Notes: generated by a model from the sequence alone, not told the origin. A stretch of 15,401 bases of DNA from Candidatus Iainarchaeum sp. (GCA_043808155.1 JAZDFD010000025.1:1-15401); one strand, 5' to 3'. Positions 116 to 15,401 are shown, counted from the stretch's first letter. Numbers and translations: made by a program.

Positions 116-1645
116 ATGTCTAAACTATCTGAGCTGATTGAGAGAAATGCAGGAAAAGCATTTTTGTTTGTTTTGCTTTTGGGGATTGTTTCAAGAATTA
201 TTTCCTTTTTGATTCTCCCTGAGGCCACATATACTGATGCCGTATATCATCTTGCGATTGTGAAAGACATTCTCCAAACAGGCCTTACTGAGGAAATACT
301 GCAAATTCTCCCAATGCCGCTTTATCATTTTATATTGGTAATTTTTTTCGGATTAACAGCTCTTCCCTTAGATATGCCGTTCCTGCGTATAATGCCTTTC
401 ATAATTTCTGTTTTGCAGATTGTTTTTGCATATTTAGTTTGTAAAGAATTGTTTCCTGAAAATAAAACACTTCAGTTAATGGGCATTGCATTCACCGCAG
501 CACATGCAGTGATAGTTATTTTCAGCGCAGTCAATTATACTGGCCCGATTGCAACTCTTTTTGTTTTAATTTCATTTTATTTGTTAATACGCATCAAAAA
601 ATCAACTAAAGTAACTAATTTTCATTTATGTTTATTTGTAATTTCTGTTTTCCTGCTGTCGCTGACAAAGATGAATGCAACATTTACAATCCCTGCTTTC
701 TTAGTAGGATTATTTTTTGTTCTCAGGGAAAAAAATGTTCCAATGCTTAAAATTTCAGGAATTATTTTTGTTATTGTGCTTCTTTCCCTTTTGTGGTTTG
801 CATTCAATTTCTTTACAACAGGAAATGCGCTTGGTTTTTCATCTGGTGATGTCGAAGCAGTAAATGTAGGTGTTTTTGAAACTAATGGTCTTTTCGAAAC
901 TAATATTACTATTGAAAAAGCCGTCTTTTTTTACTTTTATTTTTGGTATTTCCCAAGTCTCACACTTTTTCCACAGATGGGTCTTTCGGATTCTTTGCTG
1001 ATTTTAACATTAGCAGGTGTTTTTGCATTGGCAATCCTCCCACTGGGTTTGCTAATTTTGAAAGGAATTCACAATTCTCTGAAAGAAAAAAATTTGATTT
1101 ATTTAACAATGCTTCTCAGCATTTTGATGATTCTTCCAATTCTTATTATTCGCGGATTTGAAACAAGGATGTTACTTCCTGTCTTACCTTTGTTCGGATT
1201 GTTTGCAGTCAGCGCTTACTCTAAATTGAATAATGTGACTTTCCGTTCTCTTGCTGTTTTATCATTTGTTTTTTTCGGTATGTTTTCTTTTGTATATGTT
1301 TCTGGAAGTGCTGTTTATTTTTCAGATCAGCATTCAAAAGTTACAGGATTGTATGAATTTATTTCTGAACTTCCAGATGATGTGAAAATAATTTCAAAAA
1401 CTGAATTTCGCAGAATTTCATTTTATTCCGGAAAAAATTCTCGCCCTCTAAAAGACTTATCTGAATCAACTACTCCGTCACAATTCATATCTGCTGCTAC
1501 TGACGAGGGCTTCACACATTTAGCAGTTACGTGTATTGATGATTATCCTCTAAGTGTTGATTTATTTGTCTCACTTCTTGAAGACAACGAAATTACTGAA
1601 GTATATTCTGACGAATGTACTGCACTATACCAGTTAAACAAGTGA
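116..1645 (+). CDS. Polytopic membrane glycosyltransferase, GT-C fold (ArnT/PMT-like, GT39/GT83-like), probably using a lipid-phosphate sugar donor
   Basis: 509 aa with many hydrophobic TM segments. An acidic motif (EATYTDAVYH) lies in the loop after TM1, followed by PLYH and a conserved-looking RI..S segment. A late 'RMLLP' motif and a soluble C-terminal domain follow. It sits in a glycosylation cluster. Confidence 0.7.
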   Translation: MSKLSELIERNAGKAFLFVLLLGIVSRIISFLILPEATYTDAVYHLAIVKDILQTGLTEEILQILPMPLYHFILVIFFGLTALPLDMPFLRIMPFIISVLQIVFAYLVCKELFPENKTLQLMGIAFTAAHAVIVIFSAVNYTGPIATLFVLISFYLLIRIKKSTKVTNFHLCLFVISVFLLSLTKMNATFTIPAFLVGLFFVLREKNVPMLKISGIIFVIVLLSLLWFAFNFFTTGNALGFSSGDVEAVNVGVFETNGLFETNITIEKAVFFYFYFWYFPSLTLFPQMGLSDSLLILTLAGVFALAILPLGLLILKGIHNSLKEKNLIYLTMLLSILMILPILIIRGFETRMLLPVLPLFGLFAVSAYSKLNNVTFRSLAVLSFVFFGMFSFVYVSGSAVYFSDQHSKVTGLYEFISELPDDVKIISKTEFRRISFYSGKNSRPLKDLSESTTPSQFISAATDEGFTHLAVTCIDDYPLSVDLFVSLLEDNEITEVYSDECTALYQLNK

Positions 1646-1649
1646 TATT

Positions 1650-2630
1650 ATGAAAAAAATTCTTTACTATCTTGCAGGTTTGATATTCTTTATCCTTTTT
1701 GTTTCTCAGTTTAATATCGATTTTAGTATCTTTTTATCTGTTCAAAAACCGGAATTTATTCTGCTTGCTTTCATTTGTTTGTTTGTCTCACTAATTTTTC
1801 AGTCTCTGCGTTTGAAAGCATTATTGCTGTCTTTCACATCTGAAAAAACTAAATTTTCTGATTTATTCAAACTTGAACTTATAAATCGTTTTTTCCTTTA
1901 TGTTTTGCCAGCAAGATTAAATCTTCTTGCAAAAGCAGGTATAATATCCCGTAATTATAAACTCACAAAAACAGATTCTGTTGCAATAACAACTTTTGAG
2001 CAGGTTATTGATTTTTGGATGATTTTAATTCCTGCTGCTATTGGTCTGATTTTTTTCATAAGTCTTTTTAACAGTCTACCAGTTCCAATAATTCTTGCAT
2101 TTTTTGCATTAATGTTTGTAGTTTCCATTGGTTTTTTTATGGTCCCGCAGGGATTGTTTGAAGTGTTTATTTTAAAATCAGAAAAAATAAAGATTTCATT
2201 TTTGTCACGTATAATTATTTTCTTGTTGAAGTTTGCACGTGATATGAGGGTTAATTGGATAAAGTTGATTAAAAGCACACATTTCGGAACAGTTTTTATA
2301 TACACTATTCTTTACTGGAGTGCATCGCTTTTATCTTTCTATTTTTTGTTTTTTGCAGTTAATTCCAGTGTGGATTTGATTCCTCTTGCAATAAGCATTT
2401 CATTTGCATTATTCGCAGGTGTTTTATCAACAATTCCTGGGGGCTTGGGTGTCAGGGAAAGTGCAGTTATTTTAGTTCTTGGTTTTTTTGCAGTATCATA
2501 TGATGTGTCTTTTTTTGTAGTTGTCGTGAATCGTTTATTAGTCTGCGTTTTTCTTTTTTTCGGGTATTTTTTACTTCTGAAGAGGGGATATTCAACGCTT
2601 GAAGAAATTAAACGAAAATTTCTGAATTAA
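1650..2630 (+). CDS. Lysylphosphatidylglycerol synthase TM-domain / UPF0104 (AglD2-like) flippase-like membrane protein
   Basis: 326 aa, polytopic. It has 'LR.K.LL' after TM2, 'FF..VLPA', 'EQVIDF' and the family signature 'IPGGLGVRE'. It starts 4 nt after the upstream stop. Confidence 0.85.
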   Translation: MKKILYYLAGLIFFILFVSQFNIDFSIFLSVQKPEFILLAFICLFVSLIFQSLRLKALLLSFTSEKTKFSDLFKLELINRFFLYVLPARLNLLAKAGIISRNYKLTKTDSVAITTFEQVIDFWMILIPAAIGLIFFISLFNSLPVPIILAFFALMFVVSIGFFMVPQGLFEVFILKSEKIKISFLSRIIIFLLKFARDMRVNWIKLIKSTHFGTVFIYTILYWSASLLSFYFLFFAVNSSVDLIPLAISISFALFAGVLSTIPGGLGVRESAVILVLGFFAVSYDVSFFVVVVNRLLVCVFLFFGYFLLLKRGYSTLEEIKRKFLN

Positions 2631-2658: not shown

Positions 2659-3783
2659 TCATCTATTTTTTGAGTAAACTTCCAGAGTTTCTTTAGCTTT
2701 TTTTATCCATGTGTTATTTTCTGCAATTTCGATGCCTGCAGCCCCATATGTTTTCCGCATGTTTTCATCACTTAACAATTTAATAATAAACTCTGAAAAT
2801 TGTTTCAAATTATTTGGTTCTGCAAGCAGACCTGCATTACCAACTATTTTTTTTACTTCCTCAAAATCAACACTCACAATTGGCTTTCCTGCAGCCATAT
2901 ACTCGTAGAGTTTTACAGGACACCACCAAAATCCGTTTTTTTCAAGCTGTGGAAATTTCTTGGTTGAAAATGGCGCTATGCAAATATCTGATGCTTTTAG
3001 CAATACTGGTATTTTATCTCTGTCAACTTCGCCTTTTAAAATGAAATAGCGTTCTAAATTTTTTTCTTTAATAATTTCTTTGAATTTTTTCATTTCGTTT
3101 CCAGAACCAATTATCAGAAATTTCACATTGGGATTTTTCTTAATTACGTTTTCTGCAATTTCAGGAATTTCCAGAACTCCGTGCCACTCTCTGAAACTGC
3201 TCATAAAACAAATTATTTTTTCATCATTGGGCGCAATTATCTGTCGTTCCTTTTCAATTAGTGTTTCAAATACATCAAATTTCAAGACATCAACGCCGTT
3301 TGAAACAACATAAACAGGAGTGTTTGTCTGCTTTTCGATTATATTTTTCTGAGTTTCTGTTTGAGTTATTATTGCATCTGCAAAATTAAATTTTATTTTG
3401 ATTGGTATTGTGTAAATCCATTTCTTCAATCCTGTCCATGTTTCAGCACCAGGGTCATTAACCTCCAGAACATAAGGTTTGCCCAGTCCTGCCTGAACCA
3501 TACAAATATATGGATTAACAGAATATCTCTCATGAATTATATCAAATTGTTTAAGTTCATTTTTTAGTTTTGAATAATTATTTATCAGGTTTTTGAGTCC
3601 TTTTTCTAAAAATCTCACTTCAATGTTTTCCAGTTCATCAGGCCTCTTATCCCGCCCACTTTTTATGTAAAGCGTAACCTGATGACCTAAAGATATAAGC
3701 GCTTCGCACATTTCAGATGCATGAACAAAGCCTGCTGTTTTGCCTCCAAATTCTTCTGAGAATGCAATGTATGCTATTTTCAT
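2659..3783 (-). CDS. Glycosyltransferase family 4 (GT-B, retaining)
   Basis: N-terminal MKIAYI, 'GHQV', 'DIIHER', 'VVSNGVD', 'FLIIGSG' and 'PVKLYEYMAAGKPIV'. ATGA overlap with the upstream GT4 stop. Confidence 0.93.
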   Translation of the reverse strand: MKIAYIAFSEEFGGKTAGFVHASEMCEALISLGHQVTLYIKSGRDKRPDELENIEVRFLEKGLKNLINNYSKLKNELKQFDIIHERYSVNPYICMVQAGLGKPYVLEVNDPGAETWTGLKKWIYTIPIKIKFNFADAIITQTETQKNIIEKQTNTPVYVVSNGVDVLKFDVFETLIEKERQIIAPNDEKIICFMSSFREWHGVLEIPEIAENVIKKNPNVKFLIIGSGNEMKKFKEIIKEKNLERYFILKGEVDRDKIPVLLKASDICIAPFSTKKFPQLEKNGFWWCPVKLYEYMAAGKPIVSVDFEEVKKIVGNAGLLAEPNNLKQFSEFIIKLLSDENMRKTYGAAGIEIAENNTWIKKAKETLEVYSKNR

Positions 3784-4889
3784 TCAATCACATCATTATA
3801 CATTTTTTCAAATTTTTTAATCTGATTTGACCATGAATAATTTTTTGATACTTTAACAGCATTTTTTGAAAGCTCTTTTTTTTCCTTATCTGAAAGTTTC
3901 AGAATTCTTTCAATCTGAATCGCTGTGTTTTTTGTATCTGAAAAATTAACAATGAAACCATTTTTTCCTGCAGTAACAAATTTTCTGAATGACGGGATGC
4001 TGTTTAATACTGGTATTAACCCCGACGCCATTGCTTCAATAGTTGAAATGCCAAAGCCCTCGTACTCAGATGCAGAAACAAAAAATTCAGTTTCTTTAAA
4101 AATCTGAATGAGTTCTTTTTCGTTTACTTCACCAGCGAATTTGATTTTATTACTTAGTCCGCAGTCTTTTGCTTTTTTCTCTAGATTGTCTCTTAAGTTA
4201 TCAAAATCTTTTCCTACGATTTTAATTTTGAAATCTTTGTTTTTCAATTTTGAGAATACGTCTATCAGTAAATCAATTCTTTTGTTGTTTGAAATTCGCC
4301 CTACAAACACAAATGTGTTTTTAACAGGTTTTCTTTCAAGTATTTTAAATTTTTTTAAATCAATTGCATTTTCAATCATTTCTAATTGAGCTTCATTTGC
4401 AATTGTTAAAAATAATTTTTTATCATTTTCACTTACTGCAATAATTTTATCTGCATTTTTCAAATGTGCTTTAACAATATTTTGGAAATATATCTTTTTC
4501 AATGAATGAACATTTTTTGTGTGAAATATTCCGCCATGTGTTGAAACAATAACTGGTTTTCTATGTTTCTGTCTGTTTCTCAAAATCAAATCTGTAAGAA
4601 AACCTAGCCCGTGCACATGGATTACATCAGGATTTATTTCTCTTACTGTGCTCATAACATTTGTAGCAACTTTATAATATTTCAAATCAAAAAATTGCAG
4701 TCTCTTAATTTCGATGCCATGATAATCTTCTGTTTCAGGAAGTAAATTTTTTTCTTTTCCACACATATTAAGACATAATACTGAAACATCGTGTCCTCTT
4801 TTTTTCAAATGAATACTCAAATCTTCAACGCTCCTTTCTACACCCCCTTTGCATGGCCAGAAATGATTTGTAATTTGCAGTATTTTCAT
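3780..4889 (-). CDS. Glycosyltransferase family 4 (GT-B, retaining)
   Basis: MKILQITNHFWPCKGGVE, 'DVIHVH', 'STHG', 'FVGRI', and the EX7E motif 'SEYEGFGISTIEAMASG'. Start taken at ATG 4889 (ATGA overlap with the GT2 stop). The ORF track start at 4898 is an alternative. Confidence 0.93.
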   Translation of the reverse strand: MKILQITNHFWPCKGGVERSVEDLSIHLKKRGHDVSVLCLNMCGKEKNLLPETEDYHGIEIKRLQFFDLKYYKVATNVMSTVREINPDVIHVHGLGFLTDLILRNRQKHRKPVIVSTHGGIFHTKNVHSLKKIYFQNIVKAHLKNADKIIAVSENDKKLFLTIANEAQLEMIENAIDLKKFKILERKPVKNTFVFVGRISNNKRIDLLIDVFSKLKNKDFKIKIVGKDFDNLRDNLEKKAKDCGLSNKIKFAGEVNEKELIQIFKETEFFVSASEYEGFGISTIEAMASGLIPVLNSIPSFRKFVTAGKNGFIVNFSDTKNTAIQIERILKLSDKEKKELSKNAVKVSKNYSWSNQIKKFEKMYNDVIE

Positions 4890-5857
4890 TTTTTCCATAC
4901 TCCTGACAAAAGTCCCAGTATTAAACCCAGTCCGAATACAATATTTCTCGTGAAAAGTACGGGTATTATCGGGGCTACCATTGTCAAATCTTTTGACGCT
5001 GTAAAGAGAATGAATGGCATAAAACTAAGCCCTAGTACTCCCAAAAACGTCCCAAAAAGCCATAATGGCAGTATTTTAAGTCCCCACCCTACCAAGGAAA
5101 GCAAGGTCAATGTTGTAAAAATAATCTGAAATTTCAGTGCCTGAGGTGTATATGAGTCATTAATTATCTTGTCTTTGTGCCTTGAATAAAGAAGAACTCT
5201 CCAATAAGCCCTGAAAAACTTAATCTGAAGATATTTCAGAAGGCTTTCAGGATGTTTGTGATAAACAACTGCATTTTCATTAAATACAAGTTTTTCCCCT
5301 TTCTTCGCAAGTTTATAGGCTAACTCAGGATCTTCTCCTGATGCGATTGGGAAGCTCTCATCAAACCCGCCCGTACCTATAAAAATTTCTTTCCTGTAAG
5401 CTGCAGAATAACTGCCTATGAAATCAATATTTTCATGTTTTTTCATTTTCTCATAGCGTTCTTCAATTTCAATCTGCACAAATCTTGCAGTTAAAGATTT
5501 CTGCATGGTTTTATATCTTCCCTGCACACCAACAATTTCTTTATTTTTGAATGGTCTGACCATTTCATTAAGCCAATTTTTTTCTGCAATACAATCCGCA
5601 TCTATAAACACCAGAATTTCAAATTTAGCATTTTTTGCACCTGCATTTCTCGCAATTGCAGGTCCTTTATTTTTTTGAAATAAATATGTTATTTTACTGT
5701 CAAATGATTTTACAACGTCCTTTGTTTCATCTGTGCTCCCATCATCAACAACAATAATTTCATAACTTTCGCCGAAAGTTTGATTTATTAAAGACTCAAT
5801 GCACGGTTTAATTGTTTGTTCTCCGTTGAAAACAGGGATAATAACACTTGCGTTCAT
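4886..5857 (-). CDS. Glycosyltransferase family 2 (GT-A) with C-terminal transmembrane helices
   Basis: SVIIPVFN, 'VVDDGSTD', 'GPAIARNAG', the DXD motif 'FIDAD', 'GGFDESF' and 'GEDPEL', with a hydrophobic C-terminus. Confidence 0.92.
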   Translation of the reverse strand: MNASVIIPVFNGEQTIKPCIESLINQTFGESYEIIVVDDGSTDETKDVVKSFDSKITYLFQKNKGPAIARNAGAKNAKFEILVFIDADCIAEKNWLNEMVRPFKNKEIVGVQGRYKTMQKSLTARFVQIEIEERYEKMKKHENIDFIGSYSAAYRKEIFIGTGGFDESFPIASGEDPELAYKLAKKGEKLVFNENAVVYHKHPESLLKYLQIKFFRAYWRVLLYSRHKDKIINDSYTPQALKFQIIFTTLTLLSLVGWGLKILPLWLFGTFLGVLGLSFMPFILFTASKDLTMVAPIIPVLFTRNIVFGLGLILGLLSGVWKK

Positions 5858-5865
5858 AACAACAC

Positions 5866-7335
5866 TCAGCTTTTGCCTGAAATTTTTTCAGAAATATTTT
5901 CAATAAGATGTTTTGAAAAAGTCTTACTCGCTTTGAACAACCTTGGAATTTCTTTTGGATGTCTTATTGCCTGTGCAATTTTCTGAAAGATGTATTTTGG
6001 GCGCATGTAAAATTCCATTCTTGCATTATTGCACAGTTTTACAAGTTCTTTGTTTGTAAGCCATGGTCTTGAAACCATGCAGTTGTGCATTCCTTCTTCA
6101 TCAAGCCATTTAGTGTAATCCTCACTGAGCAAAAAACCTTTGCTTTTGAAATAATCATATGCTTCCGTACCAGGATAAACCATTATCGGGAAAAACTGTG
6201 CAGTATCAGGATCTAACTCTTTTGCAAACTTCACTGTTTCTACAATTGTTTTTTTTGTTTCTCCTTTGTTTCCGAGCATGAAACATCCATGCACTAAAAT
6301 TTTTGCTTTTTTAGTATCTTTCATGAACTGCCGTATTGTGTCAAGTTTAGTTCCCTTTTTTATATTGTTTAATATTTTCTGATTTCCTGATTCAAAACCA
6401 ACGCAAAGTAATCTGCAGCCTGCCTGTTTCATTTTTTCCAGAGTTTCAAGGTCAACATCTGCTCTTGCGTTTGTGCTCCATGTGATATTCACTTTGCGTT
6501 TTATAAGTTCATCACACAATTCACGCACTCTTTGTTTGTCAGCAGTAAATGTATCGTCTTCCAAAAAGATTTCTTTAACCTGTGGAAATGTTTTTTTAAT
6601 ATACTCAAATTCAGAAACTACATTTTCAATACTTCTTGTTCTGTAATTTCTTCCAGTCATTGTCTGAGGCATTAAACAGAAAATACATCTGAAATTACAG
6701 CCACGGCCTGCAACAATAGTGATTTCAGGATATAAATTTGCAGCATAAAAATAATTTTCTATTTTCAGGTGTTTTTTGTAAATCTTACTCACAAATGGAA
6801 TGTCATCCAAATTATGAATCAGTGGCATATCCCTGTTATGTATAAGTTTCTTGTTTTCCATAAAACTTAATCCTTTAATATTCCAAAGATTTGGTTTTTC
6901 TTTTTGAAGTTCTTCTGCAAGTTCTTTCAAAATTAAATCATACTCCTGTCTTGCGATTGCATCAATTTTATTACTCATTCTCAGAATTTGGTCTGGTAAT
7001 ACACTTACATGCGTTCCCACAAGCACGCAAAAACAATTCTGACTTTCTTTTATTTTTTCAAGAACTTTAACATCTGAATGAACAGAAGCTGTGCTTGTGT
7101 CTACAACAACAAGTTTTGGTTTAAATTTTTTTACAAGTTCAAGTGTTTTTTCAACTGAAATTTTTTCTGCAGGTGCATCAACAAGCTTAACTTCGTGTCC
7201 TTCTTTTTCCAGAACACCTGTAGCATATGCTAACCATAATGGGTAGTATATCGTTCCCCCCTTCGTTACTGCCGGACTTCGCGAAGAGCGTGAATAGTTC
7301 TCAAGAAATGGAGGATTAAGCATCATTATTTTCAT
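5866..7335 (-). CDS. Cobalamin-binding radical SAM enzyme (BchE/HpnJ-like superfamily)
   Basis: CxxxCxxC motif 'GRGCNFRCIFC' (6676..6699), an N-terminal B12-binding-like domain ('LNPP...YYPLWLAY', 'VGTHVS'), and 'EDDTF', 'GFESGNQ', 'FMLG..GET', 'YPGT'. Start placed at ATG 7335 (MKIMML, SD-like AAGTGAT, 4 nt after the rmlA stop) rather than 7407. Confidence 0.92.
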   Translation of the reverse strand: MKIMMLNPPFLENYSRSSRSPAVTKGGTIYYPLWLAYATGVLEKEGHEVKLVDAPAEKISVEKTLELVKKFKPKLVVVDTSTASVHSDVKVLEKIKESQNCFCVLVGTHVSVLPDQILRMSNKIDAIARQEYDLILKELAEELQKEKPNLWNIKGLSFMENKKLIHNRDMPLIHNLDDIPFVSKIYKKHLKIENYFYAANLYPEITIVAGRGCNFRCIFCLMPQTMTGRNYRTRSIENVVSEFEYIKKTFPQVKEIFLEDDTFTADKQRVRELCDELIKRKVNITWSTNARADVDLETLEKMKQAGCRLLCVGFESGNQKILNNIKKGTKLDTIRQFMKDTKKAKILVHGCFMLGNKGETKKTIVETVKFAKELDPDTAQFFPIMVYPGTEAYDYFKSKGFLLSEDYTKWLDEEGMHNCMVSRPWLTNKELVKLCNNARMEFYMRPKYIFQKIAQAIRHPKEIPRLFKASKTFSKHLIENISEKISGKS

Positions 7336-7339
7336 TGAA

Positions 7340-8065
7340 TCACTTTTCCATAAACTTCTTTGTTTCAAGATTCGCATGAAGTAAATCTTCAAAGTCACCT
7401 GCATCAAGCCATTTTCCTTTCAGATAATCTGCTTTAAGAGTTCTTTTCTGCAAATAATGTTTTTGCACATCCGTAATTTCAGTTTCACCGCGTGCAGATG
7501 GTTTTATTTTTTTTATCACATCAAACACACTTGGTTTCATGAAATAAATCCCAATAATAATATTTTTTGCAGGTGGGTTTTTTTGTTTTTCAATAACATT
7601 TGTTACTTTTTTACCCTCACAAACTGCAACTCCGCTTTTTTTTGCTTCCTCTTCTGTACCTTTATAAAGTAAAATCTGCATTGCATCTTTTTCTTTTTCA
7701 AATTCTTTTGCAAAAGGTTTTAAGGATTCAAAAATTATGTTATCTCCGTTAATTGAAATGAATGAATCATTACCGACAAAATCTTCTGCCAGTGAAATTG
7801 CCTGAGGTATTCCTCCTGCTTCATCCTGAACTTTGTAAGTAAATTTAACACCATACTCATTTCCCGAACCAAGCAATGAAAAAATATTTCCTGCATGGTG
7901 CGTACCTGTAATAATCATAATATCTGTTATTCCTGCGCTTTTCAAAGATTCAAGTGGATAGTAAATCATTGGTTTGTCATAAACTGGCAAAAGATGTTTG
8001 TTCGTTACTTTTGTTAGTGGCAAAAGTCTTGATCCTGTTCCACCTGCTAAAATTAATCCCTTCAT
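7340..8065 (-). CDS. rmlA: Glucose-1-phosphate thymidylyltransferase-like sugar-phosphate nucleotidyltransferase (short SpsI/RmlA form)
   Basis: 'MKGLILAGGTGSRLLPLTKVTNKHLLPVYDKPMIYYP', 'GDNI', 'IEK', 'SARGETEITD', 'WLDAG'. SD GGAGTGAT. Same operon as rmlB. Confidence 0.88.
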   Translation of the reverse strand: MKGLILAGGTGSRLLPLTKVTNKHLLPVYDKPMIYYPLESLKSAGITDIMIITGTHHAGNIFSLLGSGNEYGVKFTYKVQDEAGGIPQAISLAEDFVGNDSFISINGDNIIFESLKPFAKEFEKEKDAMQILLYKGTEEEAKKSGVAVCEGKKVTNVIEKQKNPPAKNIIIGIYFMKPSVFDVIKKIKPSARGETEITDVQKHYLQKRTLKADYLKGKWLDAGDFEDLLHANLETKKFMEK

Positions 8066-9451: not shown

Positions 9452-10411
9452 TTATTTCACCAGCAGCGTCCACCATGTTTCATTTTCAGCATACCATTTT
9501 ACAGTTTCTTTTATGCCTTTTTCAAAATTTTTCTTAGGTGTCCATCCAAGTTTTTTCTTTATTTTTCCTGAATCTAAAGAATATCGTCTGTCATGTCCTT
9601 TTCTGTCTTTAACATGTTCAATCATTTCTTTTCCTTTTCCAAGCTCACTCAAAATTCTTTTAGTGATTTCAAGATTCGAAACTTCATTACCCCCGCCTAT
9701 GTTGTAAATTTCACCGTTTTTTCCTTTGTGTAAACACACATCAATTGCTTCACAATTATCCAAAACATAAAGCCAGTCTCTCACATTTAAGCCATCTCCG
9801 TAAATTGGGACTTTCTTTCCCTGAATCAGATTTGTAACAAATCTTGGAATTAATTTTTCCGGAAACTGGTATGGTCCGTAATTGTTACTGCTTCTTGTAA
9901 CAACAACAGGCAGTTCATAAGTATTAAAATAACTCAACGCAAGTAGGTCTGCAGCTGCTTTTGCTGCTGAATAAGGATTTTTTGGTTTTATTAAATCATT
10001 TTCAGTGCTTGAGCCTTTCTCCACACTTCCATAAACTTCGTCAGTTCCTATCTGAATGAATTTTTTAACATTCTGTTTCATTGCAGACTCCAGCATTACT
10101 CGTACGCCTTCAAAATTAGTTCTTACAAATGCTGAAGCATCCTCAATACTTCTGTCTACGTGGCTTTCTGCTGCAAAATTAACAACTAAGTCACAGCCCT
10201 TCATTGCTTTTTCAACATCTACTGAGTTACAGATGTCCCCTTTGATAAATGTGTATTTTTCATCATCTTCCACATCACTCAAATTCTCAGTTCTGCCGGC
10301 ATATGTGAGTTTATCCAAATTCACAATTTCGTATTTTGGATATTTCTGAAGCATATACCTTACAAAATTGCTTCCAATAAATCCTGCTCCGCCAGTTACT
10401 AAAACTCTCAT
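9452..10411 (-). CDS. rmlB: dTDP-glucose 4,6-dehydratase
   Basis: 'VTGGAGFIGSNF', 'DKLTYAG', 'FAAESHVDRSI', catalytic 'TDEVYG', YxxxK 'YSAAK', 'NNYGPYQFPEKLIP', 'RDWLYV', 'DRKGHDRRY'. Confidence 0.97.
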   Translation of the reverse strand: MRVLVTGGAGFIGSNFVRYMLQKYPKYEIVNLDKLTYAGRTENLSDVEDDEKYTFIKGDICNSVDVEKAMKGCDLVVNFAAESHVDRSIEDASAFVRTNFEGVRVMLESAMKQNVKKFIQIGTDEVYGSVEKGSSTENDLIKPKNPYSAAKAAADLLALSYFNTYELPVVVTRSSNNYGPYQFPEKLIPRFVTNLIQGKKVPIYGDGLNVRDWLYVLDNCEAIDVCLHKGKNGEIYNIGGGNEVSNLEITKRILSELGKGKEMIEHVKDRKGHDRRYSLDSGKIKKKLGWTPKKNFEKGIKETVKWYAENETWWTLLVK

Positions 10412-10477
10412 AAAATTCCCCTCAAAAAGCTAATTTTCAAATCATATAATATATTACTATATAATGAAATGCGGATT

Positions 10478-10486
10478 CTTTAAAAA
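10478..10486 (-). promoter_or_regulatory. Putative TATA box for the rmlB operon (leadered transcript)
   Basis: TTTTTAAAG in the 110-nt gap upstream of rmlB. SD-like GAGGGG at 10423..10418 precedes ATG 10411. Confidence 0.3.
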
Positions 10487-10521
10487 CCATTTTGAGACAA
10501 AAATCGAAGTATTATGCTTAT

Positions 10522-10875
10522 TTATTTTCGTCTAATTTTAGGTTTGGGTTTAGGTTTCTTAGACTTAAGTCCAAATTTTTTTCGAGGCACATCTGGAGTT
10601 ATGAAATATTTTTTCCTTCCACCAAATAACTTTGGGTTGCCTTTGAGACCCCGAACGACATCCCCTCTGCATATTTCAATAATCTTTGCATTTCTTATAC
10701 CACTATTCCTGCATCTTTCTCTAAAAAGTTCCCTAACTTCTTCTCCATACAAAGCAGGAGTTTCAGGTGGTAAATCCCAACTCATTGTACCTTTTCTTTC
10801 CCCTGCCTCAAAGTGAACGATTAATACATTTCCCGGGAATTCATTCTTTTCATATTTTGCTTTTTTATTTGCCAT
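10522..10875 (-). CDS. Hypothetical small basic protein with a Lys/Pro/Arg-rich C-terminal tail
   Basis: 117-aa ATG-started ORF filling the gap between nadA and rmlB, co-oriented with both. It has its own TATA-like box 29 nt upstream and ends RKKFGLKSKKPKPKPKIRRK. No recognisable family. Confidence 0.7.
   Translation of the reverse strand: MANKKAKYEKNEFPGNVLIVHFEAGERKGTMSWDLPPETPALYGEEVRELFRERCRNSGIRNAKIIEICRGDVVRGLKGNPKLFGGRKKYFITPDVPRKKFGLKSKKPKPKPKIRRK
10537..10557. repeat. Short hexamer tandem (TTTAGG TTTGGG TTTAGG TTT) encoding KPKPKPK
   Basis: 3.5 imperfect 6-bp units inside the 3' end of the 117-aa gene. Confidence 0.5.
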
Positions 10876-10897
10876 AAAATAATAAACTCCCTATTGT

Positions 10898-10904
10898 ATT
10901 TAAA
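10898..10904 (-). promoter_or_regulatory. Putative archaeal TATA box for the 117-aa gene
   Basis: TTTAAAT starts 29 nt upstream of ATG 10875, just after the oligo-T that follows the nadA stop. Confidence 0.4.
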
Positions 10905-10916
10905 TTATTCCAAAAA

Positions 10917-11840
10917 TCAAACTAATTCAAACATCTTTCTAATAGCCAAACCAGCTTTTTCTGCAGTTTCAGAATTAATTTTCACTTCATATTGCTCTTT
11001 TTCAAGTGATTCAAGAAGGTTTCCCAGATTAATTTTTTTCTGCTGAATGCAAACTGCTTCTTCGCATCCTGTATAAAATCTCTTTTCAGGGTTCTGTTTT
11101 TCTAACTGGTGTAGCAAACCAACTTCTGTTCCAATAATGAATTCTTTTGCATTACTTTGTTTTGCAAACGTCAGCATCTGGCTTGTACTCCCAATAAAAT
11201 CTGCTATGTCCTGTACATCCATTTCACATTCCGGGTGAACTAGAATTAATGCATCAGGATGTTCAGCTTTAACTTCTGAAACCTGCCCTTTTGTGAATTG
11301 TTTGTGTGCATAACAAAATCCATTTTCTGGAAGATGAATTATTTTTTTATCAGTGTGTTTTTTCACAAATAGCCCTAAGTTTTTATCTGGCCCAAAAAGA
11401 ATTTCTTCTCCGTCAATTGCATTAACTATTTCAACAGCGTTTGCACTTGTACAGCATACATCTGCATGTGCCCGTGCTTCAATACTTGAATTAACATACA
11501 GAACAACTTTTGCATTTGGGTTTTTTTGTTTTGCTTTTTCAATTTCTGAAACACTTAACATTCCCGCCATCGGACATTTAGCGTCTAATGATGGAATCAA
11601 AATTTTCTTTTTTGGATTTAATGCCTTTGCAGTTTCTGCCATAAAATCCGCACCGCAAAGAACGATAAGTTCTGAATTTATTTCCTGAGCTTTTTTTGCC
11701 AAACCCAAAGAGTCAGCAACATAATCTGCTAATTCCTGAATTTCAGGAATCTGATAATTATGTGCAAGAATTGCAGCATTCTTCTGGTTTTTCAATTCGA
11801 TTATCTTCTCTATCTTTTTTTCATTGTTCACAGCAATCAC
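10917..11840 (-). CDS. nadA: Quinolinate synthase A ([4Fe-4S])
   Basis: 'ILAHNYQ', 'CGADFMAETAK', three cluster Cys ('CPMA', 'CYAH', 'AVCIQ'), 'YVNSS', 'CCTSANA', 'GPDKNLG', 'HPEC', 'GSTS', 'GTE'. GTG start at 11840, or at 11831 if the GTGAT is the SD. Confidence 0.96.
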   Translation of the reverse strand: MIAVNNEKKIEKIIELKNQKNAAILAHNYQIPEIQELADYVADSLGLAKKAQEINSELIVLCGADFMAETAKALNPKKKILIPSLDAKCPMAGMLSVSEIEKAKQKNPNAKVVLYVNSSIEARAHADVCCTSANAVEIVNAIDGEEILFGPDKNLGLFVKKHTDKKIIHLPENGFCYAHKQFTKGQVSEVKAEHPDALILVHPECEMDVQDIADFIGSTSQMLTFAKQSNAKEFIIGTEVGLLHQLEKQNPEKRFYTGCEEAVCIQQKKINLGNLLESLEKEQYEVKINSETAEKAGLAIRKMFELV

Positions 11841-11854
11841 TTTATGATTTAAAT

Positions 11855-12598
11855 TTAATAAATACTGAGTCCGCGCTGAATTTTCTTTATTGTTTCAAAA
11901 GCACTTGTTGTAGCAAGACCGCTTGTTCTTAAATTTGAACTTGGGGCTGCCTCTACTTTGATTGTGAATTTCCCGAAAGCACCTGATGCAGTTATTTCGT
12001 GCGTATTTGATTTTGCTTCAGGATCCGACACAATTTTTACATTTGTTTTGTCAAAACCAATTCCATTCAAAGCAAGAGTTGCGGCAACATTAACATTTCT
12101 TGGAAATTTAGGGCATGCTTCTCTTGCAGTGCCTTCAAAAACAATTGTTTTTGTTGTGTCATCTCTTCCGAGGCTTTTTGGATTTTTTGTAGTTACCAAT
12201 CCAACACTTTCAAGATTATCCTGAACAGTTGTTATTCCGTCAATTCCAATTATTGCACCTGGTGCAACATAGAATTTTGTCCCGTTTCTTCTGCTCGCAA
12301 TCTTAATCTGTTCTTCAAGTTCAGCATTCGCAAGCGCACCAACACTCATCACAAGAAGATTTGTTTTTTCAAGTACTTTTACCGCGTATTCTTTAACTGC
12401 CTCGTGTCCTGCAGCCTCAACAACCAAATCTGTTTCAGTTTTATCAAAATCTTCAAATCTTCTTATCTCATATTTTGACAATTTTGCTGGAATTTCTTTT
12501 TCATCATAAATAAATGAAATCTCCAATGTTGGATCGCCTATGATTTTTTCTGCAATATATTGTCCTATAACGCCTGCGCCGATTATGCCAATTCTCAT
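11855..12598 (-). CDS. nadX: L-aspartate dehydrogenase (NAD biosynthesis)
   Basis: Rossmann 'IGIIGAGVIG', 'VVEAAG', 'MSVGAL', 'GAIIGID', 'FEGTAREACPKFPRNVNVAATLAL' and catalytic-His 'NTHEI'. Adjacent to nadA. Start ATG 12598 (SD GAGGTG, ATGA overlap). The ORF track gives 12607. Confidence 0.94.
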   Translation of the reverse strand: MRIGIIGAGVIGQYIAEKIIGDPTLEISFIYDEKEIPAKLSKYEIRRFEDFDKTETDLVVEAAGHEAVKEYAVKVLEKTNLLVMSVGALANAELEEQIKIASRRNGTKFYVAPGAIIGIDGITTVQDNLESVGLVTTKNPKSLGRDDTTKTIVFEGTAREACPKFPRNVNVAATLALNGIGFDKTNVKIVSDPEAKSNTHEITASGAFGKFTIKVEAAPSSNLRTSGLATTSAFETIKKIQRGLSIY

Positions 12599-13563
12599 TT
12601 CAAACACCTCTTGTAATAGTAAAATGTTTCTCTCAATCCCTTTTTTAAGGTATATTCAGGAGTCCAATCAAGTAATTTGCGTGCTTTTGCAATACTCATT
12701 ACATTTTCATCTTCTTCTTTGCTATCTGCTTTCTTAAATTCAGGCTTTATTCTGCTTCCTGATGCGTCTGAAGCAAGTTTAACTATTTCCGAAATTGATG
12801 TTTGTTTCTGAGTTGCGATATTAAATGTCTCACAGCAGTTTTTATTTTTCAGTATAAATTGCATTATCTTCAGGTATGCGTCAGAAACATCATCTATAAA
12901 TATGAAGTCTCTTTTGGCTTTACCCCTTCCCAGAATTACTGGTCTAGTTCCCTGAAGGATTGCGTTCATTGAACTTGGTATTATTCTTGAAAAATTGTTA
13001 TCGTAAGGACCATAAATATTTGCACTTCTTGTTATTGCAACTGAAAGATTATGTGATTTTTGGAAAGTATGTGCAATGTTTTCTGCAAATATTTTGCTTT
13101 TTCCATATACGGTTGTTGTTTTCAATGCTGATTTTTCATTAACTGTTTTGGTTTTATGTTTGCCGTAAATCTTTCCTGATGATGCAAGCACAAAATTTGT
13201 TATCTCTGAATTTACACATGCCTGTAAAACATGCCATGTACCATAACTGTTAATTTTCATTGTTTTTTCAATTTCATTTTTGCTTAATCTTACTGCTGAC
13301 TGAGCTGCAAAGTGAAGACAAAAATCAAAATCGTCTGAAGACAAAGCTTTTTTCAGTTCATTTTTTTTCATTATGTCTGCTTTCAGAATTGTTAACTCTT
13401 TACTGATTCCGCGTTCTTTCAGCAAATCATCTTTTTTCCTGCTATGAATGATTGCTGAAACATTACATTTGTTTTCCAGAAGTTTTTCACAGACAGCAGA
13501 ACCCACAAATCCGTTTGCACCAGTTACTGCAATCTTTTTCCCTTTCATGTTTATGTTTTTCAT
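12595..13563 (-). CDS. NAD-dependent epimerase/dehydratase, extended SDR (CDP-glucose 4,6-dehydratase/RfbG-like family)
   Basis: 'VTGANGFVG', 'HFAAQS', 'ASSGKIYG', YxxxK 'YGKSK', 'RSANIYGPYD.NFSRIIP', 'RDFIFIDD'. Confidence 0.85.
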   Translation of the reverse strand: MKNINMKGKKIAVTGANGFVGSAVCEKLLENKCNVSAIIHSRKKDDLLKERGISKELTILKADIMKKNELKKALSSDDFDFCLHFAAQSAVRLSKNEIEKTMKINSYGTWHVLQACVNSEITNFVLASSGKIYGKHKTKTVNEKSALKTTTVYGKSKIFAENIAHTFQKSHNLSVAITRSANIYGPYDNNFSRIIPSSMNAILQGTRPVILGRGKAKRDFIFIDDVSDAYLKIMQFILKNKNCCETFNIATQKQTSISEIVKLASDASGSRIKPEFKKADSKEEDENVMSIAKARKLLDWTPEYTLKKGLRETFYYYKRCLK

Positions 13564-14448
13564 TTAAATCAGCAACTTTAAAAATTTTATACTTGCGTAA
13601 AGTCTCATTGTTTTTACTGCAAATACATAACAAATACCAACAAAAATGGTTATTAATGCATGAATCGGAGTTTTGTTTTCTAAATATGTTATTCCGCGAG
13701 GCGAACTCAGGTTAAATTTAGAGTTATTATGCCACAGCCCTGTTGCTGCACCAAAATCTTTCATAGGATTTATTAAAAATCCAAATTTAATATCTAAAAA
13801 GTCTTCTGTAAGTTTATTAGGGTGTTTCTTGTAAAGCAGAACATCATTTTTGTGATTTTTTAAACGAGCCCATACATGTTTTATCATTTGCAATGTGCCT
13901 TTTGGTTTTGTCATTTTGTGATCGTGAACATATCGTTTCGGCACTTTTTTAATTTCAAAACCCTGTTCAATTATTTTAAAAGCAATGTCAGTATCTTCCC
14001 TGTAATAAAAATAATCTTCATCATAGCCACCTACTTTTTCTAAAACATCTTTCCTGAATGCAGTTGACGTTCCGCCATAACCCCCGTAACCTGTAACAAT
14101 TCCGACTTTTTCAGAATCAAAACCGGTCATCATTACTTTCAGCCAGTCTTTTTCAGGTATGCAGTCATGGTCCATATTTATTACAAAATCATATTTTGCT
14201 TTTGCAATTCCCGCATTTCTTGCTTTGCAGACTCCTGATCTAGGCAGATTAATCACACTTATTTTGTCATTTTTATCAAATTGTTTCAGCATTTCTTTAG
14301 TGTAATCATTACTGCCGTCATTTACAACTATAATCTCATAATTTGCAGGATATTCTAATTTGAGCATTCCTTCCAAAACCTTTCTCAAAGTTTCAGGATT
14401 GTTCAAAGTAGGGATGACAATACTGACAGGGGGTGACTTCATCATCAT
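13564..14448 (-). CDS. Glycosyltransferase family 2 (GT-A)
   Basis: 'VSIVIPTLN', 'VNDGSND', 'ARNAG', DXD 'MDHD', 'GGYDEDY', 'REDTDI' and a C-terminal hydrophobic helix. Start placed at ATG 14448 after SD GAGGA. The ORF track start TTG 14460 is an alternative. Confidence 0.9.
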   Translation of the reverse strand: MMMKSPPVSIVIPTLNNPETLRKVLEGMLKLEYPANYEIIVVNDGSNDYTKEMLKQFDKNDKISVINLPRSGVCKARNAGIAKAKYDFVINMDHDCIPEKDWLKVMMTGFDSEKVGIVTGYGGYGGTSTAFRKDVLEKVGGYDEDYFYYREDTDIAFKIIEQGFEIKKVPKRYVHDHKMTKPKGTLQMIKHVWARLKNHKNDVLLYKKHPNKLTEDFLDIKFGFLINPMKDFGAATGLWHNNSKFNLSSPRGITYLENKTPIHALITIFVGICYVFAVKTMRLYASIKFLKLLI

Positions 14449-14456
14449 GCCAATCC

Positions 14457-15401
14457 TCAAATATCTTTTTTCTTGTATGAGTCGTGTGCCATTTTTGGGA
14501 TTTCAAAATAATCCATGTAATTGAATTCTTTTGCGCCTTCGCTTTTTGCCCATTTTATAGTCTCATCAAGCCCTTCACTAAGTGAAATCTTTGCTTTATA
14601 ATTAAGAAGTTTTTTTGCTTTTGAAACATCTGCATAAACAATTTTCACATCTGATGTTCTTTTCGGAACATATTTTATTTCCAAATCAACATTCATTTTT
14701 TTTATTGTTTCTTCTGCAAGATATTTTACAGAATAAGATTCTTCTGCACCTATATTTATCGGATTGTTAATTAGTTTTTTATTTCCTACAATGTCACATA
14801 TTGGTTCAACAATATCTGAAATATAAGTAAATGCCCGTTCCTGCAAACCATCACCAAAAATTACTGGTTGTTCTCCTTTCAGACATTTGTTTATGAAAAT
14901 AGGAACAACTCCCCTGTAAGGGTCATCCATTCTCTGTCTTGGCCCGTAAACATTGAAAAATCTCACAATATAGGGGTCAATTTTTCCCATTTCGTGATAA
15001 ACTCGGAGATAATGTTCAAACGCCATTTTTGTAATTCCGTATGGGTCTTCAGGATTTAATTTTGCAGTTTCAGAAACAGGAAGTTTTTCAGGCATTCCAT
15101 ATGCTGCAATACTGCTTGTAAAAACAAAATCTCTGACTTCTGCATTTATTGCTTCAGTAAGCAGTGTTATTGAACCCATTAAATTTGTTTCAGCATTAAA
15201 AATTGGAATGTAAACACTCTGACCTTCCGCAGCATGCGCACCCAAACAATAAATCGTGTCAACATCTTTCAGTGCTTTTTTGCATGCTTCTCTGTCACAC
15301 ATATCGCCTTCAATAATTTCAACATTTTCTGAAAGATATTTCAGATTGTTTTTCCCGCCGACATAATTATCAAGAACTACTACTTCATTGCCTCGTTTCT
15401 C
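14457..15401 (-). CDS. NAD-dependent epimerase/dehydratase (UDP-glucose 4-epimerase-like extended SDR), 5'-truncated by the window edge
   Basis: The frame stays open from 15302 to 15401 (EKRGNEVVVLDNYVGG...IEGDMCD). Motifs include 'GAHAAEGQS', 'FTSSIAAYG', 'PEDPYGITK' (YxxxK) and 'FNVYGPRQ'. The GxxGxxG motif lies beyond the edge. Confidence 0.9.
   Translation of the reverse strand, partial: EKRGNEVVVLDNYVGGKNNLKYLSENVEIIEGDMCDREACKKALKDVDTIYCLGAHAAEGQSVYIPIFNAETNLMGSITLLTEAINAEVRDFVFTSSIAAYGMPEKLPVSETAKLNPEDPYGITKMAFEHYLRVYHEMGKIDPYIVRFFNVYGPRQRMDDPYRGVVPIFINKCLKGEQPVIFGDGLQERAFTYISDIVEPICDIVGNKKLINNPINIGAEESYSVKYLAEETIKKMNVDLEIKYVPKRTSDVKIVYADVSKAKKLLNYKAKISLSEGLDETIKWAKSEGAKEFNYMDYFEIPKMAHDSYKKKDI

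Follow-up and report, generated by a model that had tools for sequence, protein, structure and literature searches.

Results

An HpnJ paralogue paired with a membrane glycosyltransferase

A 15,401-nt stretch of DNA from Candidatus Iainarchaeum sp. (GCA_043808155.1 JAZDFD010000025.1:1-15401; hereafter the window) carries, within a cluster of glycan genes, a gene for a B12-binding radical S-adenosylmethionine (SAM) enzyme, termed rSAM here (protein P0001), followed by a gene for a membrane-anchored family-2 glycosyltransferase (GT2), termed GT2m. Sequence comparison places rSAM as a paralogue of HpnJ, and not as HpnJ itself, in a large uncharacterised clade, while gene order and gene fusions mark GT2m as its dedicated partner, such that members of the clade appear to work as a fixed pair with a membrane GT2. 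The two proteins very probably act in one pathway, and the pair hints at an unusual, undescribed modified sugar on the cell surface.

The reading frame of rSAM (7335..5866) encodes a B12-binding domain (PF02310, 51.6 bits against a cut-off of 32.1, residues 22-138) and a radical SAM domain (PF04055, 84.7 bits, residues 208-371), with domain scores far beyond those of a chance CxxxCxxC. The Cys codons of its GCNFRCIFC segment lie at 6699-6697, 6687-6685 and 6678-6676 (-) and correspond to C213, C217 and C220 of the CxxxCxxC motif, which were invariant in 48/48 aligned homologues. A first-pass annotation, made from the DNA alone, had described this gene with CxxxCxxC at 6676..6699, lying 4 nt downstream of rmlA and 8 nt upstream of a GT2 gene; the gene and both gaps were borne out (7340 to 7335 from the stop of the RmlA-like gene to the rSAM start, and 5866 to 5857 from the rSAM end to the GT2m start). 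The start was set at 7335 because homologues and the HpnJ profile align from MKIMML and the longer TTG start at 7407 overlaps the upstream gene.

The AlphaFold2 model of rSAM (pLDDT 94.9, pTM 0.93) showed alternating strands and helices over residues 2-128, as in a Rossmann-type N-terminal domain. Among solved structures searched with Foldseek, AprD4 was the best match (TM 0.73-0.79), and it was also the best solved relative by sequence (E 2.6e-18); TsrM, OxsB, MgmA, CysS and TokK followed (TM 0.60-0.72, probability 1.00). The second structural neighbour in the ESM Atlas was the HpnJ cluster (TM 0.92/0.95). AprD4 and the solved class B radical SAM enzymes (OxsB, TsrM, TokK, CysS and MgmA) share with rSAM the Rossmann-type N-terminal domain, the barrel and the C-terminal helices (TM 0.60-0.74) at 14-21% identity, and none of them works with a GT2 or a lipid-linked glycan. 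By its CxxxCxxC motif, B12-binding domain and modelled fold, rSAM is assigned to the class B type, with cobalamin use predicted.

rSAM is HpnJ-like but lies outside HpnJ proper

Against NCBIfam, the best match of rSAM was TIGR03471 (HpnJ; 466.1 bits, E 1.3e-139), with residues 1-477 aligned to positions 1-467 of the 472-position profile, followed by BchE (192.6 bits), PhpK (138.9) and ApyD (127.6); the AprD4 family profile scored 87.9 bits. The annotated HpnJ of a Paraburkholderia graminis plasmid aligned end to end with rSAM in BLASTP (37% identity over 481 aa, E 3e-108). The SR and (Y/W)YPxWLA segments, which the first-pass annotation had described as HpnJ-like, coincided in this alignment. 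The rSAM score nevertheless falls below the TIGR03471 equivalog cut-off of 577.6 bits.

An exhaustive search of representatives returned 48,688 rSAM relatives at E <=1e-3 and 6,784 cluster representatives at E <=1e-30. Of the 150 best, 102 were 430-560 aa long (the other 48 lay outside this range) and 100 of these were scanned against the families. HpnJ was the best family for 91 of the 100; 87 of these scored below its cut-off and only four (P0169, P0176, P0178 and P0206) reached it, while the true HpnJ members scored 597-818 bits. Five further representatives were BchE-like and four had no match at E <=1e-70. Since only four of the 91 HpnJ-best representatives reach the cut-off, HpnJ proper accounts for a small share of a large family of HpnJ-like proteins.

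Phylogenetic analysis separated the two groups. The first tree (87 rows, IQ-TREE quick search, LG+C20, SH-aLRT; locus L012 omitted for its intein, L029 and L057 for want of an intact gene in the open reading frame (ORF) call) placed rSAM in a clade of 33 rows (100%) that holds every Iainarchaeota locus together with the Omnitrophota and Melioribacter loci. True HpnJ formed another clade (99%), and both fell within a 47-row clade (99%) whose inner order the tree does not resolve. The BchE-like representatives, Bathyarchaeota, Woesearchaeota and other loci lay outside that clade, so a phylogeny of the HpnJ/BchE-like part, which the first-pass annotation had proposed as a check, unites rSAM with true HpnJ to the exclusion of BchE-like relatives. 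In a second tree of 61 rows, to which the radical SAM parts of fused proteins were added, true HpnJ including fused forms made up one clade (97-98%) and rSAM belonged to another of 35 rows (96%); a 55-row clade (99%) enclosed the two and again left out the BchE-like relatives. Forcing rSAM and its L001 counterpart into a clade with true HpnJ lowered the log-likelihood by 106 (approximately unbiased (AU) test, p-AU 0.00034, a formally weaker test as the group was chosen after the tree had been seen). Nine positions are common to the rSAM clade and HpnJ and rare in 22 outgroup rows (R19, D88, Y186, P251, R308, F337, H349, Q380 and G415), and seven positions are fixed differently in the two, of which six fall in residues 15-38. 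The idea that true HpnJ is set apart categorically by a weaker B12-binding domain was rejected, as the scores form a gradient (20.7-42.7 vs 51.6 bits).

The sub-cut-off score, the separate well-supported clade and the rejection of their union by the AU test together indicate that rSAM is not an HpnJ. Four features of an HpnJ could be assessed: rSAM shows the full-length collinear match, and lacks the cut-off score, the clade membership and the hopanoid genes, with hpnI, hpnK, shc and hpnH not found in the 15.4-kb window using Pfam and NCBIfam. That rSAM is simply HpnJ, making the hopanoid cyclitol ether, or an orthologue of calditol synthase is extremely unlikely, even though HpnJ is its top family match and JGI names some of its relatives HpnJ; the host is a DPANN archaeon, and according to the accessible part of a preprint (10.1101/2025.07.29.667474) the TIGRFAM HpnJ domain occurs only in genomes with SHC and HpnH. 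The HpnJ likeness claimed in the first-pass annotation thus stood as kinship closer than that of a generic class B enzyme (466 vs 193 bits for BchE; the 99% clade), and fell as orthology.

GT2m is the constant partner of rSAM

Besides PF00535, GT2m matched PF13641, PF13632 and PF13506, as well as Glyco_transf_21 (ceramide glucosyltransferase/HpnI type, 26.9 bits). Its hydrophobic segments lie only between residues 245 and 320, in agreement with the transmembrane anchor described for it at first pass, and D39, D43, D86 and D176 (GT-A, DxD-type motifs) were invariant in 10/10 aligned sequences.

Synteny was counted over 57 genome loci. A GT2m orthologue (50-56% identity) lies downstream on the same strand in 8/8 archaeal loci with an rSAM identity of 48% or more (L001, L005-L010 and L012). 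It is directly adjacent in L005 and L010, separated by one small class I methyltransferase gene in L006-L009 and by two in L012, and follows a 4.7-kb insertion in L001. Orthologues of the second GT2 of the window, GT2b (45-59%), occur upstream of rSAM in 8/8 of these loci and adjoin Alg13/Alg14 genes in L005, L006, L007 and L009, and orthologues of the family-4 glycosyltransferase (GT4) GT4a (41-45%) follow GT2m in 6/8 (L001, L005, L006, L009, L010 and L012). In the bacterial loci of the clade (L002-L004), all three carry a 386-390-aa GT2 gene 17-18 nt downstream of rSAM, with the same four Pfam families as GT2m at 24-26% identity to it; the GT2 beside bacterial rSAM relatives is weakly HpnI-like (23% over 163 aa, E 5e-8).

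Using a local GT2 profile, and with three loci dropped that had no rSAM ORF, a GT2 was detected within five genes in 11/11 close loci (Iainarchaeota, Omnitrophota and Melioribacter), the nearest lying 1-2 genes away in 9/11 and 3 or 5 away in the other two. Among 42 more distant loci, a GT2 was next door in 4, 3-7 genes away in 4 and absent from the available stretch in 34, a contrast that is overstated to an unknown degree because the profile derives from the close loci's own GT2s and many of the distant loci are short. A predicted rSAM-GT2m complex scored 0.00 (mark 0.32) with controls not run, and speaks neither for nor against binding.

The coupling was also found within single polypeptides. 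P0129 (842 aa, Megalodesulfovibrio gigas by its NCBI name, encoded on a 3.69-Mb contig) joins a radical SAM enzyme of the rSAM clade (45% identity) to a GT2m-type GT2 sharing 44% identity with GT2m over 271 aa (E 2e-77). Other fusions in the clade involve GT4 (P0149), class I methyltransferases (P0123, and P0048/P0087 with an FkbM domain) and TPR repeats (P0278); P0158 and P0179, likewise fused to class I methyltransferases, lie outside the 35-row clade, in subclades next to it within the 55-row clade. The first-pass annotation had made its reading depend on a GT2 linkage conserved across genomes and on the protein not grouping with generic class B methyltransferases; the linkage holds in 11/11 close loci and in a fusion, and no such grouping was seen among the family profiles scored and the rows of the two trees.

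True HpnJ has comparable links. The plasmid-borne hpnJ and hpnI of P. graminis overlap by 4 nt and have a PF03706 membrane protein gene directly after them (L058:7692-8744). In P0282 and P0283, HpnI and HpnJ are fused and each half exceeds its cut-off, in P0284-P0288 HpnJ is joined to a CDP-alcohol phosphatidyltransferase (PF01066), and in P0289 to an MGDG-synthase-like glycosyltransferase, all eight scoring as true HpnJ (768-780 bits). These fusions suggest that HpnJ-type chemistry may also act on non-hopanoid lipid head groups. Across the HpnJ-like family, gene order and fusions thus tie the radical SAM enzyme to a membrane transferase predicted to place a polar group on a lipid-bound acceptor.

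Several further arrangements were recorded. The HpnJ/CDP-alcohol phosphatidyltransferase form makes up an Atlas cluster of 55 members, commonest in Gemmatimonadota. In L001, a phosphodiesterase, a CysN-like GTPase and a CysD/PAPS-reductase-like gene, possibly for sulfate activation, lie on the opposite strand between rSAM and GT2m (L001:9972-13860), and a SPASM-type radical SAM gene adjoins GT2b (L001:1989-3065). Two B12-type radical SAM genes surround a GT2 gene in a Woesearchaeota locus (L014:4206-10139; PMT_2, radical SAM, GT2, methyltransferase, radical SAM) and in an Iainarchaeum locus (L011:496-4277; radical SAM, then radical SAM and GT2). As the radical SAM proteins of L014 and L011 fall outside the 55-row clade, pairing of GT2 with B12-type radical SAM enzymes is wider than the HpnJ-like clade. 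On the 27-kb plasmid 1 of Lawsonia intracellularis (L059, 6007-12617), a radical SAM gene (product 31% identical to HpnJ), a methyltransferase, a second radical SAM gene and four class I methyltransferases stand in a row flanked by GT2 and galE genes, another glycan cluster around B12-type radical SAM enzymes. P0212 and P0245 (1,826 and 2,633 aa) combine two radical SAM domains and one detected B12-binding domain with DUF362, ferredoxin-type 4Fe-4S, GT4 and TPR domains.

Inteins were also observed in the family. A LAGLIDADG intein splits the HpnJ-like radical SAM protein of L012 (L012:5745-8828) just before the third Cys of CxxxCxxC; because this Cys is the +1 extein residue (...CKYRCTF-[intein]-CKFPQT...), no cluster site can be assembled until splicing has taken place. 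LAGLIDADG-bearing inteins also occur in P0127, P0139, P0165 and P0272-P0280. P0276 has an insertion at a second site, in its GCRLLCVGFE motif, and in P0130 a LAGLIDADG insertion lies elsewhere, upstream of CxxxCxxC.

The surroundings point to a lipid-linked glycan

The relatives of GT2m longer than 566 aa were informative about its pathway. Of the 45 best rows (37-49% identity, E <=3.9e-58), 35 by an eye count of the listing are fused to Bac_transf, 29 of these 35 together with CoA_binding_3; other long relatives are fused to PMT_2, Wzy_C, GT4 or a radical SAM enzyme. The fused part in these 35 rows represents a polyprenyl-phosphate phosphoglycosyl transferase, which starts the assembly of lipid-linked glycans. 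Consistent with this, the array of L005 comprises, in order, AglB/STT3, an Alg7-like glycosyltransferase, Alg14, Alg13, (a GT4 on the opposite strand), a short-chain dehydrogenase/reductase-type (SDR) gene, GT2b, a methyltransferase, rSAM, GT2m and GT4a. In L006, L007 and L009 the module is flanked by STT3 and/or Alg13/Alg14 genes, with a MOP-type flippase gene after it in L009, and PMT_2 genes for GT-C glycosyltransferases stand directly upstream of rSAM in L007, L008 and L014.

Because the GT2s of the GT2m type are mostly fused to polyprenyl-phosphate sugar transferases and the module neighbours AglB, Alg7, Alg13 and Alg14 genes, the substrate of rSAM is rather probably a sugar of a lipid-linked glycan. 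In Iainarchaeota this glycan would most likely be a dolichol-linked N-glycan precursor, an assignment against which it must be held that it is drawn from gene neighbourhood, that glycan genes lie together in such small genomes in any case, and that the window itself contains no AglB. Of the lipid- or protein-linked sugar that the first-pass annotation had proposed as substrate, the context favours the lipid-linked, N-glycan-type pathway, and a membrane-lipid head group less so.

In the head-group version, the one nearest to the HpnI/HpnJ and Cds precedents, the sugar would be attached to a core lipid by GT2m and then ring-contracted by rSAM, giving an acid-stable ether head group of the calditol type. 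In its favour, the substrate of true HpnJ is a sugar on a lipid, and proteins at HpnJ equivalog level occur fused to HpnI, CDP-alcohol phosphatidyltransferases or an MGDG-synthase-like glycosyltransferase, all builders of head groups; GT2m matches Glyco_transf_21, and the window holds a PF03706 flippase-like gene, as does the hpnJ-hpnI locus. We consider this version quite unlikely, since the closest long relatives of GT2m are fused to glycan-assembly enzymes (phosphoglycosyl transferases, Wzy_C and PMT_2), the module stands in line with AglB, Alg7, Alg13, Alg14 and several further glycosyltransferases, and the PF03706 gene is not conserved in related loci. This gene had been considered as a conserved third member of the module and was rejected for the rSAM clade, no relative being found in the 57 loci at E <=1e-3. 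The two PF03706 proteins gave a short BLASTP match (E 5e-4), and the presence of such a gene near both pairs may be a coincidence because it is not kept in other related loci.

The place of the nucleotide-sugar genes bears on whether rSAM acts before or after glycosyl transfer. The rSAM gene starts 4 nt after the RmlA-like gene with rmlB in the same array, rmlA and rmlB also lie upstream of rSAM in L001, L006, L009 and L012, and Fom3 uses a nucleotide-linked substrate, all of which would suit an action of rSAM on free dTDP-4-keto-6-deoxyglucose. The two genes are, however, inverted in L007 and L008 and missing from L005 and L010, where the core of GT2b, rSAM, GT2m and GT4a is kept without them. 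Since rmlA and rmlB are present, inverted or absent depending on the locus, the constant partners of rSAM are glycosyltransferases and not nucleotide-sugar enzymes. Moreover, the fusion partners are GT2, GT4 and methyltransferases, and neither the 31 scanned long proteins nor the 23 longer matches included a fusion to a nucleotidyltransferase or a dehydratase, making an action on the free nucleotide sugar very unlikely.

Candidate reactions of rSAM

We infer the acceptor, the order of steps and the chemistry as follows. At the cytoplasmic face of the membrane, GT2m would add a hexose or 6-deoxyhexose to the lipid-linked glycan, possibly from a dTDP-sugar donor supplied by the RmlA-like enzyme and RmlB. 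rSAM would then cleave SAM, and the 5'-deoxyadenosyl radical would take a hydrogen from the added sugar, which would rearrange. By analogy with HpnJ, the favoured outcome would be contraction of the pyranose to a cyclopentitol, turning the glycosidic bond into the ether of a carbasugar, and the neighbouring class I methyltransferases and GT4s may decorate and extend the glycan. Ring contraction is favoured because of the specific kinship with HpnJ and the common gene design; as the reaction of rSAM it is a reasonable, if tentative, possibility, and the sequence of sugar addition by GT2m and then ring contraction by rSAM is tentatively proposed on the same analogy.

Several observations weigh against this proposal. 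With 37% identity and a separate clade, the reaction type of HpnJ need not be kept, and the B12-binding domain, which scores higher than in true HpnJ, equally fits cobalamin-dependent methylation. The closest solved structure is that of AprD4, a sugar diol-dehydratase. GT2m was ruled out as an HpnI orthologue (TIGR03472 23.2 bits vs a cut-off of 310; BLASTP against P. graminis HpnI, E 0.022), and HpnK was not found with the pair in the window. The difference in GT2 linkage between close and distant loci is, as stated, overstated. Finally, as far as the available portions of the sources go, the HpnJ reaction itself is known from gene knockout only, with no biochemistry (PMC13459092, PMC9092360, PMC9204698), and in a published similarity network the C-methylases Fom3 and MoeK5 stand close to HpnJ (PMC9204698).

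rSAM might instead be a class B C-methyltransferase of the same lipid-linked sugar, moving the methyl group of methylcobalamin onto an unactivated sugar carbon to give a branched or chain-extended sugar. According to the accessible text of two papers, methylases make up most of the characterised cobalamin-dependent radical SAM enzymes, and in a network drawn at a stringent threshold HpnJ groups together with Fom3 and MoeK5 (PMC9204698, PMC12931638). The strong B12-binding match (51.6 bits) and the methylases TsrM, MgmA, CysS and TokK among the structural neighbours agree with such an activity, and the 4,6-dehydratases here and TylC3-type C-methyltransferases in L003 and L004 show that these clusters build methyl-branched sugars. 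The best methylase family, PhpK, nevertheless reached 139 bits against 466 for HpnJ, with which rSAM shares a 99%-supported clade, and C-methylation appears only slightly less likely than ring contraction.

Another radical reaction on the sugar was also considered, such as an AprD4-like 1,2-diol dehydration (deoxygenation), an epimerisation or an oxidation. AprD4, which acts on an aminoglycoside sugar, is the best solved relative by sequence and structure, and BchE and OxsB show non-methylase chemistry in the class, according to the part of PMC9204698 that is available. Against this, the AprD4 profile scored 87.9 bits compared with 466 for HpnJ, and a network legend in the accessible part of a review terms AprD4 unrelated to B12 enzymes (PMC12931638); we regard such a reaction as unlikely. 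Ring contraction by rSAM on a lipid-linked glycan is narrowly favoured over these readings, at the tentative strength given above.

Gene array of the window and its host

The G+C content of the window is 29-36%. Eight consecutive minus-strand genes, from rmlB to the second GT4, are separated by gaps or overlaps of <=13 nt (Table 1). The gene called rmlA at first pass does encode a member of the nucleotidyltransferase family (PF00483), and its product falls below both NCBIfam RmlA equivalog cut-offs (TIGR01208, 221.4 vs 320.25 bits; TIGR01207, 193.2 vs 360.65 bits).

Table 1. Genes of the glycan cluster and flanking membrane proteins in the 15,401-nt window
Feature	Position	Strand	Basis
RmlB, dTDP-glucose 4,6-dehydratase	9452..10411	-	TIGR01181 467.5 bits, above cut-off 365.1
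Class I SAM methyltransferase, 210 aa	8818..9450	-	Methyltransf_11 34.7 bits; weak relative between rmlB and rmlA in L009
Class I SAM methyltransferase, 244 aa	8070..8804	-	Methyltransf_31/23/11; L001 orthologue, 220 bits
RmlA-like sugar-1-phosphate nucleotidylyltransferase, short form, 241 aa	7340..8065	-	PF00483 173 bits
HpnJ-paralogous B12-binding (class B type) radical SAM enzyme, rSAM (P0001), 489 aa	5866..7335	-	PF02310 + PF04055
GT2m, GT2 with C-terminal membrane helices, 323 aa	4886..5857	-	PF00535 130 bits
GT4a, GT4; 13-nt overlap with GT2m end	3780..4898	-	PF00534, PF13439
GT4b, second GT4	2659..3783	-	PF00534, PF13439; 44% orthologue in L001
GT2b, second GT2	13564..14460	-	PF00535 108.9 bits
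NAD-dependent sugar epimerase/dehydratase (SDR)	12595..13563	-	PF01370, PF16363
NAD-dependent sugar epimerase/dehydratase (SDR), 5' end beyond window	14457..15401	-	PF01370, PF16363; 76% identical to L001 orthologue
Flippase-like membrane protein, LPG_synthase_TM domain	1650..2630	+	PF03706 85.2 bits, TIGR00374 71.7 bits
Polytopic membrane protein, 509 aa, tentative GT-C type glycosyltransferase	116..1645	+	many hydrophobic segments

The 509-aa membrane protein has a weak NCBIfam match to the LA_3751/3752 putative glycosyltransferases (E 4e-5), and a relative of it adjoins a radical SAM gene in L011. Its assignment as a PMT_2 GT-C protein was not borne out: there was no Pfam match up to E 1 and no BLASTP similarity to the PMT_2 protein of L007. 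Genes for NadA (quinolinate synthase) and aspartate dehydrogenase, of de novo NAD synthesis, lie between rmlB and the SDR/GT2b genes (10917-12607, -) and are absent from the corresponding place of L001. A 117-aa ORF (10522-10875, -) had no Pfam or NCBIfam match and no relative in the 57 loci and may be non-coding; together with the gaps 10412-10521 and 10876-10916 it makes up the only larger interruption in the run of minus-strand genes. The window contains no tRNA and no Rfam family.

In the species-representative genome set, the nearest loci belong to metagenome-assembled genomes of Candidatus Iainarchaeum/Iainarchaeota (DPANN, kingdom Nanobdellati). The closest of them, L001, has the same gene order as the window, with four genes at 65-76% identity. 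Among the 120 best rSAM relatives, nearly all named matches are 'Candidatus Diapherotrites archaeon', with one 'archaeon' and one 'bacterium'.

Discussion

To our knowledge, the ring contraction of a sugar to a cyclitol on lipids has been linked to no enzymes other than HpnJ and calditol synthase, and neither has been reconstituted. HpnJ, which is needed for the bacteriohopanetetrol cyclitol ether, resembles rSAM in domain order, length and fold, and in both cases the radical SAM gene is followed by, or fused to, one for a membrane GT2. In contrast to HpnJ, which stands among hopanoid genes with HpnI as its partner, rSAM occurs in an archaeal host and a glycan cluster and differs at seven fixed positions. 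The module of HpnI and HpnJ (and HpnK) in Burkholderia and relatives offers the closest functional parallel: a GT2 sugars a membrane-bound acceptor and a radical SAM enzyme remodels the sugar, as is predicted here, and a PF03706 membrane protein gene lies nearby, as it does here. The acceptor is a hopanoid in that module, whereas here it is probably a polyprenyl-linked glycan, and in place of a deacetylase such as HpnK, class I methyltransferases are adjacent or fused.

A second comparison is with calditol synthase, Cds (Saci_1489), of Sulfolobus acidocaldarius. For this archaeal radical SAM enzyme, ring contraction of a hexose bound to lipid has been proposed (PMC13459092, PMC9092360), and no statement of homology between Cds and HpnJ was found in the accessible portions of PMC13459092, PMC9092360, 10.1101/2023.10.20.563219 and PMC10465181. 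A literature search that did not cover supplements, which may bear on distribution, found no description of HpnJ-like proteins outside hopanoid producers and none of a B12-type radical SAM enzyme in archaeal N-glycosylation. It also found no polysaccharide cluster combining a radical SAM enzyme that depends on B12 with a glycosyltransferase, and no account of a glycosyltransferase together with a radical SAM enzyme in Diapherotrites.

The present analysis indicates that HpnJ proper is only a small branch of a much larger family, one large sister clade of which is tied, by adjacency and fusion, to the GT2s of lipid-linked glycans in DPANN archaea and several bacterial phyla. The label 'HpnJ' on such proteins, for example in JGI names, should therefore not be read as evidence of hopanoids. 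It is a rather doubtful but conceivable outcome that, in Iainarchaeota and in Omnitrophota, Ignavibacteriota and Megalodesulfovibrio, an HpnJ paralogue turns a surface-glycan residue into an ether-linked cyclopentitol carbasugar while it is on its lipid carrier. If ring contraction is the true reaction, it would yield a new kind of glycan residue, a unit of the calditol/cyclitol-ether type within a protein- or polymer-linked glycan that would resist acid and glycosidases, and the clade would stand as a second functional branch of the HpnJ family, far larger than the first.

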